64,000 bases of DNA from an uncultured delta proteobacterium (GTDB lineage Bacteria > Myxococcota_A > Polyangia > Polyangiales > B10-G4): NCBI GenBank assembly GCA_963727445.1, contig CAVSGI010000009.1, positions 544,001 to 608,000 of the forward strand. The letters run 5' to 3'. Under the pieces are notes generated by a model. The model worked only from the letters and a program-made list of their open reading frames with translations, was not told where the DNA came from and searched no databases. Below, piece after piece: positions 19,239-26,250 of this stretch. How positions within the stretch are numbered: position 1 is the first letter of the stretch; the number at the start of each line of letters is the position of its first letter. The translations under genes were made by a program, and so were the position numbers.

Positions 19239-20291
19239 GTGGCGAGCGCTTCAGAGTCAGCGGCGGCAGGGGTCGGCGACGGGCCGGAGACGACCGCCGA
19301 CGTCGAGGTCATGGACGCGGAGCTCCTCTTGCGTCTCTCCGGGCCGAACAGCGCGCATCTGAGGACGCTCGAAGGTGCGCTCGGGGTGAGCCTGGGCCTT
19401 CGGGGTCACACCATTCTGGTGCAGGGGCAGACCGACGCCGTCGACCAGGCGGTGCGGGTGCTCCTCGAGCTGGTCGATGTGCTGGGGCGCGGGAAGAACA
19501 TGTCCGGTGTGGAGATGGCGCGCGCGGCGCGGACGCTCCAGCGCTATCCGGAAGTGAAGCTGCGCGACCTCTTCGACGACGTGGTCCTGGTGGCGTCGCA
19601 GAAGAAGGCCATCGCTCCGAAGGGCATCGCGCAGCAGATCTACATCCAGGCGATTCGCGACTTCGACGTGGTCTTCGGCATCGGGCCGGCGGGTACCGGC
19701 AAGACTTACCTGGCGATGGCCATGGCCGTGCGCGCGCTTCAGTCGAAGCTGGTCAAGCGGATCATCCTGACGCGGCCGGCGGTCGAGGCCGGCGAGAAGC
19801 TGGGGTTCTTGCCGGGTGATCTCGCGGAGAAGGTGAATCCGTATCTCCGGCCGCTCTACGATGCGCTCCACGACATGATGGACATCGACAAGGCGCAGGC
19901 GTTGCTCGCCCGCGGCACCATCGAAGTCGCGCCGCTGGCGTTCATGCGCGGCCGGACGCTCAACGACAGCTTCGTGATCCTGGACGAAGCGCAGAACACC
20001 ACGCCGGACCAGATGAAGATGTTCTTGACGCGCCTCGGCTTCGAGTCGAAGGCGGTGATCACCGGCGACGCGACGCAGACCGATCTACCCGAAGGGCGGC
20101 GCAGCGGGTTGGCCGACGCGGCGAATCTCCTCGGAAAGATAGAGGGGATCCGCGTCTGTCACTTCACCGACGCCGACGTGGTGCGGCACCCCCTCGTGCA
20201 ACGCATCGTCCGGGCGTACGATGGGCGCGACGCCAGGCGCGAGGCGCAGCGTCAGGCCGAGGAAGAGGAGAGCGGGGGAGACGAGACGTGA
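19239..20291 (+). CDS. phoH: PhoH family ATPase
   Basis: GPAGTGKT, RPAVEAGEKLGFLPG, MRGRTL, LDEAQN and VVRHPLV. Confidence 0.95.
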   Translation: MASASESAAAGVGDGPETTADVEVMDAELLLRLSGPNSAHLRTLEGALGVSLGLRGHTILVQGQTDAVDQAVRVLLELVDVLGRGKNMSGVEMARAARTLQRYPEVKLRDLFDDVVLVASQKKAIAPKGIAQQIYIQAIRDFDVVFGIGPAGTGKTYLAMAMAVRALQSKLVKRIILTRPAVEAGEKLGFLPGDLAEKVNPYLRPLYDALHDMMDIDKAQALLARGTIEVAPLAFMRGRTLNDSFVILDEAQNTTPDQMKMFLTRLGFESKAVITGDATQTDLPEGRRSGLADAANLLGKIEGIRVCHFTDADVVRHPLVQRIVRAYDGRDARREAQRQAEEEESGGDET

Positions 20292-22255
20292 GCAACTCGA
20301 CCACGACTCGAACGCCGGGGGCGACGTCCCCAGCGGGATTCATCGCGAAGCGGATCAAGGCCGATCCGCGTATCGATCGCGATGAGATGGACGTGGTGGT
20401 GGCTGGTCAGGTGGTCGAGATCACCAAACGAGATGCGCTCCTGGTGGCGGTGCCCACCATCAGTCTGGCGCACGACGCGCTCGAGCCTTACGCGGAGCGG
20501 ATCGCCGAGGGGCGAGCGGGGCTGATCCTGGTCGGCGTTCCCCCGACCGGGTTTCTCGAGACGCTGCCCGAGCGTGCGGTGGTGGCGTTGGTCGACGGGA
20601 CCTTCGGCGACGACGCGCTCTACCTGACCTTTCAGGGGATGCTCGAGCGGGTGGAGATGCGCCTCACGGACGACCGCCGGCGGCGCACCCTCGATCGCTA
20701 TCGGTACGAGCTGGGCGAGCTCGTCGAGATCGCGCGCGCCTTGAGCCAGGAGCGCGACACGTCGCGCCTGCTGAACCTGATCCTCGAGAAGAGCCGATTC
20801 ATCACCGGTGCGGATGCCGGGAGCATCTACGTCCTGGAAGGGGACGATCCGGACTTCATGAATCGGAAGCTGCATTTCAAGCTTTCGCAGAACGAGTCGT
20901 GTGAGTTCGAGTCGAGCGAGTTCACCATGCCCGTGTCGACCCGGTCCATCGCGGGCGCGGCGGCGGTGACGCGTTCGCCGATCAACATCCCGGACGTCTA
21001 TCGGATCCCCGAGGAGACCCCGTACGGGTTCGACAAGAGCTTCGACGAGAAGGTCGGCTACCACACCAAGTCGATGATCACGCTGCCGATGATCTCGGCG
21101 GAAGACGACGTCATCGGGGTGATTCAGCTCATCAACAAGAAGAAGCACCCCGAGAAGCGACTGGTCGAGAAGGCCGACTTCGATGCGGAGGTCGTGGAGT
21201 TCGGCGAGCGCGAAGAGGAGCTCCTGCAGACGCTCGCCTCGCAGGCGGGCATCGCGCTCGAAAACGCGCTCCTCTACGAGGAGATCAACCGCATCTTCGA
21301 GGGGTTCGTGCGCGCGAGCGTGCAGGCGATCGAGCAGCGCGATCCCACGACGAGTGGTCACTCGCTCCGGGTGAGCGTGCTGTCGTGCCGGCTGGCCGAG
21401 ATCGTGGATACGGTCGATGCCGGGCTCTACGCGGACACCAGCTTCACGCGGCGGCAGATCAAGGAGCTCGAGTACGCCTCGCTCCTGCACGATTTCGGGA
21501 AGATCGGCGTGCGCGAGAAGGTGCTGGTGAAGGCGAAGAAGCTCTATCCGCACGAGCTGGCGGCGGTGCGGGCGCGATTCGACTACCTGCTGAAGGCGGG
21601 CGAGGTCGAGATGCTGCAGACGAAGATGCAGCTCGTGGCGTCGGGCGCGTCGAAGGAGGAGCTCGAGGCCGCGGAGATGGCCTACGAAAAGAAGCGAGGC
21701 GAGCTGCAGGGCGCGTATCAACTGGTGCTTCAGGCGAACGAGCCGACGGTGATGTCGGAGGGCGACTTCACGGCGGTGGGTGCGCTCGCCGAGCGGACCT
21801 ACGTGGGGCCGGATGGATGCAGCCATCCACTTCTGCACGACAACGAGGTGAAGTCGCTTCAGGTGACGAAGGGGTCGCTGAACGATCAGGAGATCGAGGA
21901 GATTCGATCACACGTGACGCACACCTTCGACTTCTTGTCGCGGATCCCGTGGGGCAAGACGATGCGTTTCGTGCCGCAGATCGCCGGCGCCCACCACGAA
22001 AAGCTCAACGGCAGCGGCTACCCGCGCGGCGTCAAAGCGGACGCGATCCCGCTCCAGTCGAAGATCATGACCATCGCAGACATCTTCGACGCCCTCACCG
22101 CGCGCGACCGCCCCTACAAGAAGGCCATGCCCGTCGAGCGCGCCCTCGCCATCCTCGGCTACGAAGTCAAAGACAACCACATCGACGCCGAGCTCGTCCG
22201 CCTCTTCACCGAAGCCAAAGTCTTCGAAGCCGTCCAAGACGACCTCTCCTACTAA
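20288..22255 (+). CDS. GAF + HD-GYP cyclic dinucleotide phosphodiesterase
   Basis: GAF domain (GVIQLINKK); TSGHS, LHDFGK, HHEKLNGSGYP and DIFDALT..RPYK. Confidence 0.9.
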   Translation: MSNSTTTRTPGATSPAGFIAKRIKADPRIDRDEMDVVVAGQVVEITKRDALLVAVPTISLAHDALEPYAERIAEGRAGLILVGVPPTGFLETLPERAVVALVDGTFGDDALYLTFQGMLERVEMRLTDDRRRRTLDRYRYELGELVEIARALSQERDTSRLLNLILEKSRFITGADAGSIYVLEGDDPDFMNRKLHFKLSQNESCEFESSEFTMPVSTRSIAGAAAVTRSPINIPDVYRIPEETPYGFDKSFDEKVGYHTKSMITLPMISAEDDVIGVIQLINKKKHPEKRLVEKADFDAEVVEFGEREEELLQTLASQAGIALENALLYEEINRIFEGFVRASVQAIEQRDPTTSGHSLRVSVLSCRLAEIVDTVDAGLYADTSFTRRQIKELEYASLLHDFGKIGVREKVLVKAKKLYPHELAAVRARFDYLLKAGEVEMLQTKMQLVASGASKEELEAAEMAYEKKRGELQGAYQLVLQANEPTVMSEGDFTAVGALAERTYVGPDGCSHPLLHDNEVKSLQVTKGSLNDQEIEEIRSHVTHTFDFLSRIPWGKTMRFVPQIAGAHHEKLNGSGYPRGVKADAIPLQSKIMTIADIFDALTARDRPYKKAMPVERALAILGYEVKDNHIDAELVRLFTEAKVFEAVQDDLSY

Positions 22256-22603
22256 CGGGGACGGTCTACACTTTTCAACTTTCTCCGCCGGTTTCGCGCC
22301 CTGCGATCGCGATCCACCGGGGACGGTCTACACTTTTCAACTTTCTCCGCCGGTTTCGCGGTCGCTGACACCCCGCGATAGTGCGCTCATCACCATTTCG
22401 ACGTGCTTCAATGCCTGAGCGATCGATCCACCGGGGACGGTCTACACTTTTCAACTTTCTCCGCCGGTTTCGCGGTCGCTGACACCCCGCGATCCACCGG
22501 GGACGGTCTACACTTTTCAACTTTCTCCGCCGGTTTCGCGGTCGCTGACACCCCGCGATAGTGCGCTCATCACCATTTCGACGTGCTTCAATGCCTGAGC
22601 GAT
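22256..22603. repeat. Left-end array: four copies of the 28-bp end motif, each with a different length of transposase 3' end
   Basis: Copies start at 22256, 22318, 22432 and 22498; the first three duplicate about 43, 106 and 62 bp of the true end. Confidence 0.95.
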
Positions 22604-23552
22604 GGCGGCTTCGTTCCGGTTGAGCAGCGCCGAAGCGGCTGAGTCGCTGATTCCCAAGTGCGTGGCCATTTCACTGGCGTTTCGATTCAGGCCACGCGAC
22701 CACACGATGACCGCAACGCGACGAGCCGTGGTCAGAGTGCGCAAGCGGCTTCTGGATCTCATTGCGGCTTCATCGACCCCGAGGACGCGAGCCACGACGT
22801 GAACCACCGTTGCACAATCCATGGGCTCAGAGTTGCGACTCGGCAGCGAGGGGGGAGCAACCACCGGCACACGCATGAGCTGACCGTGGTCGTCCAAGTC
22901 GAAAACGGGCGGCGCGACTTGCACCGGGCCACCGGATTCGTGGCGGGCCTCTCGTTGTAGCCGGGGGATTCTGTCTCCCGCTGAGGGCATCGTTTCGAGG
23001 CTCTTCGCGGTGTCGGTTTACGAATTCGTCGAACGACTTCCTGCCGGAGGCACGACTGCTGAACCCCGACAGCTCCAGCCCGAGTTCGATGTGGAGCCAC
23101 GAAGGGGCGCCGGTCGGCTCGAGGTAGAGCCGGTGGGAGGTCCAGCTCGACTCCCGCGCCAACCTCACCACTCCGGCCCGCGGGGGGTTGTTGCTGACGT
23201 AGGACACCAGATAGCCAACAGCGTCGGCGCCACAGATGATGGTCGTGGGACGGCCCGCGAACAGAGGCCCACGGCGTTCCTGGCGCTTGTTCATCCACGT
23301 CGCGAAGCCGCCGTTGAGCGCCTTCATGAAGCCCTCGAGATCGAGCGTGCCAGCCATGGCCACCAAGTGGATGTGATTGCTCATCACGCCATAAGCGATG
23401 ATGCGCCAATCGGTGCGTGCCATGACAATGCCGAGCCGCCGGAGGTATTCGCCGCGTTCTGCCGCGCAGGTGATGCGGAAGCCCCCGTCGACGAAGCGAC
23501 AGACGATGTGGACGATGGAGCCTGGAGGTAGGAGTCGAGGTTGCCTGGGCAC
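22517..23552 (-). CDS. REP-associated tyrosine transposase (RAYT, Y1_Tnp) with a C-terminal DnaA_C-like HTH; frameshift at about 22960-23000
   Basis: MPRQPR start; MSNHIHL (HUH); GPLFAGR; SYVSNNPPRAG (Y..NP); WTSH. The second frame gives VARVLGV..RSRSR..TARRVA..SEMATHLGISDSAAS. Confidence 0.85.
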
Positions 23553-23598
23553 GACCCCTTGTCGGCTGGTGAGCGGCGAAGTTGCGGACCTGAGCGAC

Positions 23599-23772
23599 GA
23601 AAGTTGAAAAGTGCAGACCGTCCCCGGTGGCGTGTCCCCGGTGGCGTGGTGAGTGGCGAAAGTTGAAAAGTGTAGACCGTCCCCGGTGGCGCCGTCCCCG
23701 GTGGCGCCCGGTCCCCGGTGGCGCCCGGTGGCGTGGTGAGTGGCGAAAGTTGAAAAGTGTAGACCGTCCCCG
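23599..23772. repeat. Right-end array: three inverted copies of the end motif interleaved with GTCCCCGGTGGCG units
   Basis: GAAAGTTGAAAAGTGYAGACCGTCCCCG at 23599, 23658 and 23745. Confidence 0.95.
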
Positions 23773-25290
23773 TTAGCGCATGATGGCTACTAGGGTGGCG
23801 GTGATGATGGCGATGAGGATGCTGGCGCCGGCGACGGCCAGCCAGTTGACTTTGGATTGGGGGCGCGTGGGGGGGATGGCTGCTTGGGGGTAGGAGAGCT
23901 CGCTCCAGTTCGGGCGGTTCATTTCGACGGTCCGGGCGGTCTCGATCTTGTCTTCTCGGGCGGGAGGGGTGGTGCGTTTGTCGGTGGTGCCGATGGCGTC
24001 TTCGAGGGTGGTGCCGGCGTCGCCGCCCGGGGAACCGTCGACCTCCTCCGGTAGGATGAGCGGCTTGGTGGGGCTGGCCTCGAGGTCCTGCGGCGCCTCG
24101 CCGCGAAGCGCCGCCATCGCGCGGCTCGGCGGCGGGCGTCGCCCTCCATCACTCGTCGGGTTCGTGTCCCGCTCCGAGATCGACACCGGCTCGAGCGCTC
24201 CAGGTGGCGGCGTCAGATCCATCGCCGTCCGCCGCATCGTCCGCTCGCCCTCCATCGGCTCGCTCGACCCCAGCTCCTCACTCAGCTCCACCGACACCTG
24301 CGTCGGCGCCGACTGAATCTCGTCCACGTCGTCGTACGCTTCCCGCCGCCGTCCCGACTCGGACGGCTGCCGGTGCCTCCGGCTCCCCTGACCCAGCACC
24401 TCGTCGATCGCATCGTCCAGGGTCTCGAAGACCACGCCCCCCGCGAACGGCTCGAGCGCCAGTCCCAGGGTGCGAATCGACGGGTAGCGGTCGTCCGGAT
24501 TCGGCGCCATCGCCTTCAGCACCACCTCTTCGAGCTTCTCCGGCACGTCGATGTTGATCACCGTCGGCGGTCGCGGATCCGTGTTGGTGATCTTGAAGAA
24601 GAGGTCGGGTAGCGAATCTCCGTCGAAGGGCAACTCGCGCGTCAGCCCTTCGTAGAGCATCACCCCCACCGAGTACACGTCCGCCCGCTGGTCTACCGTG
24701 CTCGAATCGGCGATCTGCTCCGGCGCCATGTAGTACGGACTCCCGAGGAACGTCCCCGCGCCCGTCAGCTTTCCGGTGGCATCCGGATCGCGCAGCTTCG
24801 AGATCCCGAAGTCGAGCACCTTCGCCCCGCCGGCGCGCCCGCGCCTCGGCAGGCACAAGAAGATGTTGTCCGGCTTGAGGTCGCGATGCACCACACCACG
24901 TTCGTGCGCCGCGAACACACCGCGCAACGCCGGCATCAACGTCTGCACCAGATCCTTCGGGCTCGGCGCCCCGCGGTCGAGATACTCCCGGAGCGACTCC
25001 CCGCGTAGCAGCTCCAGCACGAGGTAGAGCGACTCCTCGTACCGCCCCGCGTCGTAGATCTCCACCACGTTCGGATGGTCCACCGCGTTCGCCGCCCGCG
25101 CCTCGCGCAGGAATCGCGACGCCACCGTCGGATTCTCCGCCAGCTGCGGGTAGAGCCACTTCAATGCGACCCGCTTGCCGATCAGCTCGTGAGTCGCTTC
25201 GAAGACGACTCCGGCCGCACCCTTGCCGAGCTGCCGCTCCAGTCGATACTTCTCGGCGATGACCTCTCCGGGCTCGGGGACATCACTCAC
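23773..25290 (-). CDS. Ser/Thr protein kinase with a C-terminal transmembrane helix
   Basis: GKGAAG, VALK, HRDLKPDN, DFG and GSPYYMAPE; GTG at 25290 preferred. Confidence 0.92.
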   Translation of the reverse strand: MSDVPEPGEVIAEKYRLERQLGKGAAGVVFEATHELIGKRVALKWLYPQLAENPTVASRFLREARAANAVDHPNVVEIYDAGRYEESLYLVLELLRGESLREYLDRGAPSPKDLVQTLMPALRGVFAAHERGVVHRDLKPDNIFLCLPRRGRAGGAKVLDFGISKLRDPDATGKLTGAGTFLGSPYYMAPEQIADSSTVDQRADVYSVGVMLYEGLTRELPFDGDSLPDLFFKITNTDPRPPTVINIDVPEKLEEVVLKAMAPNPDDRYPSIRTLGLALEPFAGGVVFETLDDAIDEVLGQGSRRHRQPSESGRRREAYDDVDEIQSAPTQVSVELSEELGSSEPMEGERTMRRTAMDLTPPPGALEPVSISERDTNPTSDGGRRPPPSRAMAALRGEAPQDLEASPTKPLILPEEVDGSPGGDAGTTLEDAIGTTDKRTTPPAREDKIETARTVEMNRPNWSELSYPQAAIPPTRPQSKVNWLAVAGASILIAIITATLVAIMR

Positions 25291-25344
25291 GTCTAAAGAG
25301 TATCCCCAGCGATGCTCACCGAGAAGGGTGTATGGTTCCCCCGG

Positions 25345-26250
25345 ATGGACGACCGCATCCACGATGGCGTTCTCGATCTCGTCGGCCGAACCCCCCTGGT
25401 GCGCCTCTGCAAGCTCTCACCCGAGGGCGGCGCCGAGGTCTGCGCCAAGCTGGAGTCCGCAAATCCGGCTGGCAGCGTCAAAGACCGCCCGGCCCTCTCG
25501 ATGGTCCTGGCGGCCGAGGCCGCGGGCGAGCTCGCCGACGGCGCGACCATCGTCGAGGCCACCAGCGGCAACACCGGCATCAGTCTCGCCATGATCTCCG
25601 CCGTTCGCGGCTATCGTTGCATCCTCGTCATGCCCGAGGACATGAGCCTCGCCCGCCGCGAGATCCTCCGCCTCTATGGGGCTGAAGTGGTCTTGACCCC
25701 GGCCGAGGAGGGAATGGCGGGCGCCGTCGACCGCGCCGAGGAGATCCGCAGCGCCGAAGGCGCATGGATGACGCGCCAGTTCGAAAATCCAGCCAACCCC
25801 GAGATCCACGCGATCACCACCGCTGAAGAGATCTGGCGCGCGACCGGCGGTTCCCTCCACGCTTTCGTCGCGGGTGTCGGCACTGGCGGCACCCTCACCG
25901 GCGTCGGCCGCGTCCTCAAGGAGCGAAACCCCGACATTCGCATCTACGCCGTGGAGCCACGCGCGAGCGCCGTGCTTTCCGGAGGTAGGCCCGGACTGCA
26001 CGGGATCCAGGGCCTGGGGGCGGGCTTCGTCCCGGAAGTGCTCGACCGGGCGCTGATCGACGAGGTCCTGACCGTCACCGATCTGGCCGCGGAACGCTCC
26101 ATGCGTCGCCTCGCGCGCGAAGAAGGCCTCCTCGTGGGGCCCTCCGCGGGCGCCAACGTCCACGCTGCCATCGAGGTCGCCGACGCGCTCGAAAAGGGCC
26201 AGCGCGTCGTCACCATCCTGTGCGACACCGGCGAGCGCTACCTCTGCTGA
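25345..26250 (+). CDS. cysK: Cysteine synthase A
   Basis: NPAGSVKDR, TSGNTG, GVGTGGT and HGIQGLGAG. Confidence 0.93.
   Translation: MDDRIHDGVLDLVGRTPLVRLCKLSPEGGAEVCAKLESANPAGSVKDRPALSMVLAAEAAGELADGATIVEATSGNTGISLAMISAVRGYRCILVMPEDMSLARREILRLYGAEVVLTPAEEGMAGAVDRAEEIRSAEGAWMTRQFENPANPEIHAITTAEEIWRATGGSLHAFVAGVGTGGTLTGVGRVLKERNPDIRIYAVEPRASAVLSGGRPGLHGIQGLGAGFVPEVLDRALIDEVLTVTDLAAERSMRRLAREEGLLVGPSAGANVHAAIEVADALEKGQRVVTILCDTGERYLC

Follow-up and report, generated by a model that had tools for sequence, protein, structure and literature searches.

A 64,000-nucleotide stretch of DNA from an uncultured delta proteobacterium (contig CAVSGI010000009.1, positions 544,001 to 608,000; hereafter the window) carries a transposase element between two convergent host genes, one encoding an HD-GYP/GAF protein and the other a serine/threonine (Ser/Thr) kinase. 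The source genome (G000) comprises 9.5 Mb with a GC content of 68.8%, and its assembly is 86% complete. The element spans positions 22253–23775 (1523 nt), and its two outer edges are formed by an inverted repeat without mismatches, 31 bp long (22253–22283 and 23745–23775) or 32 bp if the adjoining host C is counted. Each 31-bp arm opens on the TAA stop codon of one of the convergent genes. The element is almost certainly a TIRtron, and its gene a TIRYT of transposase subclass 2.1. The features of the locus are as follows.

20288–22255, plus strand: host GAF and HD-GYP gene (Pfam GAF/HD_5); the left inverted repeat begins with its TAA
22253–22283, plus strand: outermost left end, TAAC followed by the 27-nt unit (22257–22283), from a repeat search
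22308–22423, no strand: 116-nt duplicate of 22488–22603, 100% identical, carrying a unit copy and a copy of the gene 3′ end
22319–22345, plus strand: second left unit copy
22433–22459, plus strand: third left unit copy
22499–22525, plus strand: innermost left unit copy, which encodes the last codons of the transposase and its TGA (22517–22519)
22517–22969, minus strand: TIRYT gene 3′ part, linker and DnaA-domain-IV-like helix-turn-helix (HTH) domain (Pfam match at about 22643–22810)
22969–22970, minus strand: one extra base (frameshift), located by the frame switch of homologs and by the X1 contig described below
22974–23552, minus strand: TIRYT gene 5′ part, Y1/HUH domain; H60 and H62 at 23375–23367, Y118 at 23201–23199, WTSH serine motif
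23599–23625, minus strand: innermost right unit copy, with one mismatch; the GTG start codon lies 46 nt downstream
23658–23684, minus strand: middle right unit copy, with truncated GGGGAC fragments on both sides
23745–23775, minus strand: outermost right end, TAAC and the 27-nt unit (23745–23771)
23773–25362, minus strand: host Ser/Thr kinase gene (Pfam Pkinase); its TAA opens the right inverted repeat

An earlier reading of this DNA from its letters alone (the sequence-only reading) had described a transposase gene lying flush against both host genes, filling the gap between them, and bounded by a pair of perfect 31-bp repeats that contain its stop codon. The flush position and the exactness of the repeat are borne out, as is the span of the element across the whole gap. 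However, the terminal repeat is the outermost member of an array: The 27-nt unit GGGGACGGTCTACACTTTTCAACTTTC occurs seven times in the window, with four copies to the left of the gene and three to the right (seven matches, compared with none in 100 shuffles). The gene itself accounts for only 1036 of the 1523 nt, the remainder being the repeat array with its 116-nt duplication, and the TGA of the gene lies in the innermost left copy rather than in the terminal one. A single unit is not predicted to fold, in agreement with the claim that the end motif is non-palindromic, whereas a head-to-head dimer of units forms one long stem.

The assignment of the gene to the Y1/HUH transposases with a C-terminal HTH domain was likewise correct. 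The protein carries NHIHL at amino acids 59–63 and YVSNNP at amino acids 118–123, which gives a YxxxNP context (Y118, N122, P123) and a distance of 58 between the HuH motif and the tyrosine. It matches Pfam Y1_Tnp with 26.4 bits (cut-off 23), and Bac_DnaA_C with an E-value of 1.1e-5 that falls below the cut-off of that model. Bac_DnaA_C is also matched by 31 of 83 relatives at E ≤ 0.01, and a family profile compared with DnaA gives E = 5.6e-7. H60 and H62 are invariant among the 83 relatives; the tyrosine motif served as the search pattern for this set, and its invariance there is by construction. The source records of the related Y1-HTH loci are mostly from Myxococcota. The predicted structure of the intact ortholog from a genome of the same genus (P0002, predicted local distance difference test score 95.7) can be superimposed on Escherichia coli TnpA-REP (4ER8; Z 16.5, root mean square deviation 3.0, 161 residues aligned) and on DnaA domain IV (3PVP; Z 13.0, deviation 1.9, 91 residues aligned). 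A Foldseek comparison of the Y1 core with TnpA of IS200/IS605 gives an E-value of about 1e-4. A scan for sigma-70 promoters found none.

In the assembly, the gene is split by a frameshift at 22969–22970. Since the homologs (n = 29, mostly 277–376 amino acids) switch frame at 22965–22981, the window gene has one extra base. A near-identical contig from run X1 (151 nt, depth 2) matches the window over 22867–23018 save for one base left out at 22969, and 4 of 79 host open reading frames (ORFs) tested in the G000 assembly are also split between frames, part of them possibly as alignment artifacts. For these two reasons, the frameshift is likely to be an assembly error or a segregating allele.

TIRYT genes and TIRtrons were named by Di Nocera, De Gregorio, and Rocco (2013; PMC3733652), who also noted dimers and clusters of terminal inverted repeats (TIRs). 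As in the TIRtrons of the accessible text of that report, the window element has a RAYT-like HUH/Y gene between TIRs that bear no relation to REP hairpins, its ends begin with GGGG-W-S, TIR dimers and clusters are dispersed in the genome, and several genes with different TIRs are present per genome. The report states that TIRs may overlap the gene end, as the TGA within the innermost left copy does here, and that the sequence GGGGWSAS is found in some TIRs but not all. In the classification of Quentin et al. (2018; PMC6006769), as far as its accessible portion goes, 20 of 26 TIRYTs fall in TnpA-Y1 subclass 2.1, all with an HTH domain, and this subclass is the second largest group, present in 14.9% of strains. 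Its subdivision 2.1.2 is characterized by YxxxNP, a HuH–Y distance of 58–67, and a C-terminal domain resembling Bac_DnaA_C, HTH_23, or HTH_28. The window protein agrees with its YxxxNP motif, its distance of 58, a serine motif past the core, a C-terminal Bac_DnaA_C-like HTH domain, and no REP hairpins. Quentin et al. identify this subclass with the TIRYTs. The sequence-only reading was therefore right to propose a RAYT subclass with non-palindromic ends and an HTH domain, although that subclass already had a name.

Similarities to better-known HUH systems are also evident. TnpA-REP 4ER8 is the closest solved fold, RAYTs cut at C↓T as suggested for the junctions described below (PMC8266576, accessible part), and RAYT/REPIN systems likewise combine a single-copy enzyme with many inverted doublets of ∼100 nt that are nonautonomous and have variable spacers (PMC8266576; bioRxiv 2021.07.10.451892, both in their accessible parts). 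Unlike RAYTs, the window family lacks a palindromic unit and a conserved GTAG and has an extra HTH domain, and its matches to the NCBIfam model REP_Tyr_transpos (25.3 and 31.1 bits) do not reach the cut-off of 80. With TnpA of the IS200/IS605 family (IS608, ISDra2) the element shares the Y1 HUH core, and no target duplication was seen. Unlike those enzymes, the window enzyme has YxxxNP rather than YxxxQ, is about twice as long, and has no TnpB, and its ends are symmetric inverted repeats instead of subterminal hairpins.

Inverted repeats are a common property of the related loci. Among 80 such loci, 9 had flanks too short for the test, and 66 of the remaining 71 carry an inverted repeat, compared with 6 of 55 control windows. 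Each related gene carries its own end sequence. In a set of 64 ends (62 anchored pairs, the window, and locus L004 of G000, with L063 among them mis-anchored), a tip of NGGGWCRS is conserved and positions 10–29 differ between lineages. The window end GGGGACGG matches 7 of the 8 positions of GGGGWSAS, and among related ends the exact GGGGWSAS is found in 5 of 42 and GGGGWSRS in 39 of 42. Positions 10–29 repeat themselves, with an identity of 0.41 at a lag of 8 and 0.43 at a lag of 9, compared with 0.26 in shuffled sequences (maximum 0.30, 500 shuffles), and the best lag is 8 or 9 in 47 of the 64 ends. The family-wide end is bipartite, consisting of a conserved tip and a variable box that occurs twice, 8–9 nt apart. 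The window end has ACTTT as its box, at end positions 14–18 and 22–26, 8 nt apart.

The tandem box is a plausible candidate for the operator of the HTH domain. Pointing to the lack of resemblance between GGGGWSAS and a DnaA box, Quentin et al. doubted that the ends are read by this domain; the candidate site proposed here is instead the variable tandem box located inside of the conserved tip. DnaA-type domains bind 9-bp repeats according to the accessible part of the same paper, and two direct boxes would therefore suit such a domain. As the sequence-only reading had suggested, the HTH domain may plausibly recognize the ends, given that their variable part is a tandem box. The boxes track protein phylogeny (r = 0.46, 61 proteins) but not the HTH domain in particular.

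A genome-wide scan for the unit, which that reading had recommended, reveals 176 copies in G000 within five mismatches, of which 126 are exact. They form 55 clusters, and the arrays of the window element make up two of these. Most copies form gene-less head-to-head dimers of ∼97 nt and arrays. One spacer lineage of 93–98 nt accounts for 22 of the 38 head-to-head dimers, at 21 sites, and many dimer spacers are unique. Capture of genomic DNA was considered as the origin of the spacers and rejected, as only short GC-rich matches were obtained. The window gene is the only Y1 gene found in the G000 assembly that is flanked by the 27-nt repeat. A metagenome scan for the unit yielded six loci, one of them a dimer of the window family on an unrelated contig (L184), and the gene was found in none.

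Other genes in G000 and its relatives have similar retinues. L004 (1392–2446; G000 C10:487559–488613) encodes an intact 327-amino-acid TIRYT of the HTH type with a different end, present in 68 copies and 24 clusters. The ortholog in the same-genus genome (G001) has other neighbor genes, a third end sequence, and many dimers of its own of 59–62 nt (23 retrieved). In addition, G000 holds seven Y1 elements of ∼1.4 kb that belong to another type (C9:292130/C9:305552 [L230, L231], C10:416661/C13:35192, C13:434750/C20:160720, and C21:29932). These have inverted ends with a GAGATC core and tandem end copies, and the pairs are 99.3%, 97%, and 89% identical. The members of a pair sit at separate sites, with identity beginning at the repeat, which indicates that TIR-bounded Y1 units can move whole. 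For the TIRYT genes, both flanks are common to 5 of 6 pairs with at least 75% amino acid identity, and among 57 more distant pairs 2 share one flank. This pattern indicates that the gene stays put in the short term and moves in the long term.

The positions of the repeats relative to host genes are distinctive. Among outward ends that face the 3′ end of a gene in G000, 22 of 67 lie exactly one base past the stop codon, compared with an expected fraction of at most 0.10 (p about 3e-7). These 22 stops comprise 14 TAA, 8 TGA, and no TAG, whereas TAA ends 239 of 7484 genes (3%) genome-wide. A C precedes the stop in 19 of the 22 (compared with 49%), and CTRA is found at −5 in 32 of 91 outer ends. 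The one-base spacing, the excess of TAA, and the preceding C together suggest a C↓T junction at which the element end supplies the stop codon. Inner tandem copies likewise have TAAC and YGAT flanks, as does the same dimer in the unrelated metagenome contig L184, which implies that these flanks travel with the element. The simplest reading, for which the chances seem to us evenly balanced, is that the first bases of the end are TAAC or TGAC and that joining takes place at a host C↓T. The junctions point to a putative site 4–5 nt outside GGGG (C↓TRA) and not directly at GTCCCC, where the sequence-only reading had placed the nick.

The HD-GYP orthologs stop at the same codon as the window gene in 11 of 13 cases, 10 with TGA and 1 with TAG, and the kinase ortholog in G001 also stops at the same codon, with TGA and without a repeat. 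Nine of the 22 stop-adjacent genes were compared with relatives. In five, the stop falls on the same codon as in the closest ortholog, where it is TGA. Relative to its same-genus ortholog, a sixth gene is one codon shorter, at CTC↓TAC; a seventh is shorter by 3–5 codons, and the remaining two have variable ends. The comparison with an empty site that the sequence-only reading had in mind yielded nothing, since the HD-GYP and kinase genes were not found next to each other in the 13 HD-GYP loci of relatives. In G001 the kinase gene has a different neighbor and the contig with the HD-GYP gene stops short of the 3′ end of that gene. Across the family, the distance to a coding stop is between −2 and +4 for 36 of 121 outer ends, and 14 of these overlap the stop itself; when only ends with a coding stop within 150 nt are counted, 36 of 69 (52%) are in this range, a modest excess over the 27%–40% expected.

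These observations can be assembled into a model that we moderately favor: A TIRtron gene is accompanied by arrays of its own ends, and the enzyme likely spreads gene-less copies with two ends. The HTH domain would bind the two boxes as double-stranded DNA, in place of the hairpin that RAYTs and IS200 enzymes read. As in RAYTs, the Y1 domain would then nick single-stranded DNA between C and T, ∼4 nt outside GGGG, and the TAAC or TGAC end would be joined to a host C↓T site. Insertion at C↓TGA would exchange the stop for TAA and leave the protein unchanged. Movement of the gene itself would be rare, and its frame is probably open in the living population. A broader and more tentative proposal, which we put forward as a minority possibility, is that TIRYTs are hybrid HUH transposases in which a DnaA-type domain on tandem double-stranded boxes, rather than a single-stranded hairpin, serves to find the ends, and that the window lineage, with an end that opens on a stop codon and is joined at C↓T, lands on host stops and rebuilds them. 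If this is true, then end recognition and cutting are separate modules that can be swapped. G000 provides exact substrates: two cognate pairs of enzyme and ends, the intact L004 gene, an ortholog in the same genus, and candidates for both the operator and the cut site. Such substrates make testable how a family of hairpin-reading enzymes handles inverted-repeat ends. Although the element type has been described before, the tandem 8–9-nt boxes and the stop-codon junctions of the window family are not described in the accessible text of the 2013 report, and no other report of these traits was found in literature that included few subscription papers; the figures or alignment supplement of the 2013 paper may show the boxes. 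No experiments on subclass 2.1 were found in the same literature.

Several results weigh against this model. The host gene ends in G000 come from a codon-model gene caller made for this analysis (7484 genes). Breakpoints between tandem copies give no fixed position for the cut. The C↓TRA flank occurs only in the window family and is absent from the L004 family (44 ends) and the G001 family (48 ends), and the flanks of the 97-nt lineage are conserved to −7/−8, beyond what a C↓T junction predicts. Because TAA is rare in the genome, TGA in the orthologs is expected regardless. Covariation between the HTH domain and the boxes is not specific to that domain, with partial r values of 0.16–0.20 compared with 0.20 for 10-residue windows of the catalytic domain (61 proteins), and to this extent the proposal that the HTH domain recognizes the ends gains nothing. 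The open frame is known from a single depth-2 X1 contig, and no near-identical second copy of the whole element is present in the G000 assembly.

The ends may not rebuild stops at all; insertion could occur at existing YTRA-like sites or in short gaps between convergent genes, with only harmless insertions surviving. This explanation, which we consider rather unlikely, would fit the location of 28 of the 55 clusters between convergent genes (555 of 4748 gene pairs are convergent), the fact that 26% of CTGA sites are stops when intergenic and stop cases are counted together, a share similar to 22 of 91, and the modest family-wide excess near stops given above. However, TAAC sites are stops in 4.4% of cases, yet 12 of 25 TAAC outer ends are, and the TAAC/YGAT flanks on inner copies and on the L184 dimer travel with the element. 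It is still less probable, in our judgment, that the repeat sites are old and inherited, with the resident enzyme rewriting their sequence in place by conversion and the repeats perhaps serving the host as 3′ hairpins. One orthologous gene does have a repeat past its stop in G000 as well as in G001, the end sequence differing between the two genomes; in the further relative G005, a GGGACGG-type end comes directly past the stop of another such gene; the closest gene pairs share both flanks; and many spacers are unique. Most orthologous sites argue otherwise, as 12 of 13 G000 matches to repeat-adjacent genes of G001 have no repeat in the flank examined; 22 dimers at 21 sites belong to one spacer lineage, and gene pairs below 75% identity almost never have flanks in common.

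The sequence-only reading had linked the GTAG in the window end to classical RAYTs and their REPs. Only 6 of 64 ends contain GTAG, which is absent from the ends of the L004 family and the G001 ortholog, and it is thus not a feature of the family; no palindromic REP is present. That GTAG might nonetheless act as a REP-type guide selecting a CT cut seems improbable to us. GTAG selects CT or CA in a group 3 RAYT (PMC8266576, accessible part), the CT peak appears only in the family with GTAG among the three counted genome-wide, and G001 ends have A at −5 in 19 of 48 cases, matching their own position 10. Such a role is difficult to reconcile with the rarity of GTAG, the lack of a conserved hairpin after it, and the coverage of just three families by the comparison. 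Moreover, the planned test of a guide code, in which flank position −5 equals end position 10, was negative (z 0.89, 120 ends, 60 loci). A scan for other guide codes gave 1 of 400 cells with z 3.88, above the 95% null maximum of 3.68, and this cell was set aside as lacking a rationale. Equally remote to us as in-place rewriting is a dead gene with fossil repeats, or with repeats that a different transposase moves. The frameshift is present in the assembly, and frameshifts of RAYT genes are natural in Neisseria (bioRxiv 2021.07.10.451892, accessible part). Yet 126 of the 176 copies are exact, the X1 contig has no extra base, host ORFs are frame-split in the same assembly, and 74 of 79 relatives are full length, the other five being cut by contig or locus ends.

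Two forms of target duplication were also considered. For a YR duplication, with flanks judged by eye, pairs that break the pattern outnumber those that fit it. A GC duplication is compatible with part of the 97-nt lineage but not with the window locus. In viral contigs, 37 single 15-mer matches were found, with no second copy and no transposase match, and these were judged to be chance occurrences.

Several additional observations were made. Two conserved host genes of G000 (C6:122229–122874 and C15:174210–175041) are split across frames, probably by indel errors. The L004 end contains TTGACA, a perfect −35 box for sigma-70, and in the L004 family 11 of 17 spacer groups form dimers of 94–100 nt despite unrelated spacers, which hints at a preferred length. 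L002 (869–2402; G000 C9:168173–169706) is a 253-amino-acid Y1 gene within inverted arms of ∼117–140 nt, with 6/12-nt tandem tracts on both sides; an 82% identical relative is located at C10:985759. GGGAC-type ends follow orthologous stops in L050 of G001 and at G000 C10:328857, and in L158 of G005 and L146 of G000; the sequences differ, and such places could be hot spots or inherited, rewritten sites. Finally, AGGG ends at L068, L070, L078, L091, L092, and L104 complete a host TAG with the preceding T (nine ends at −2), and the family thereby overlaps stop codons in a second manner.

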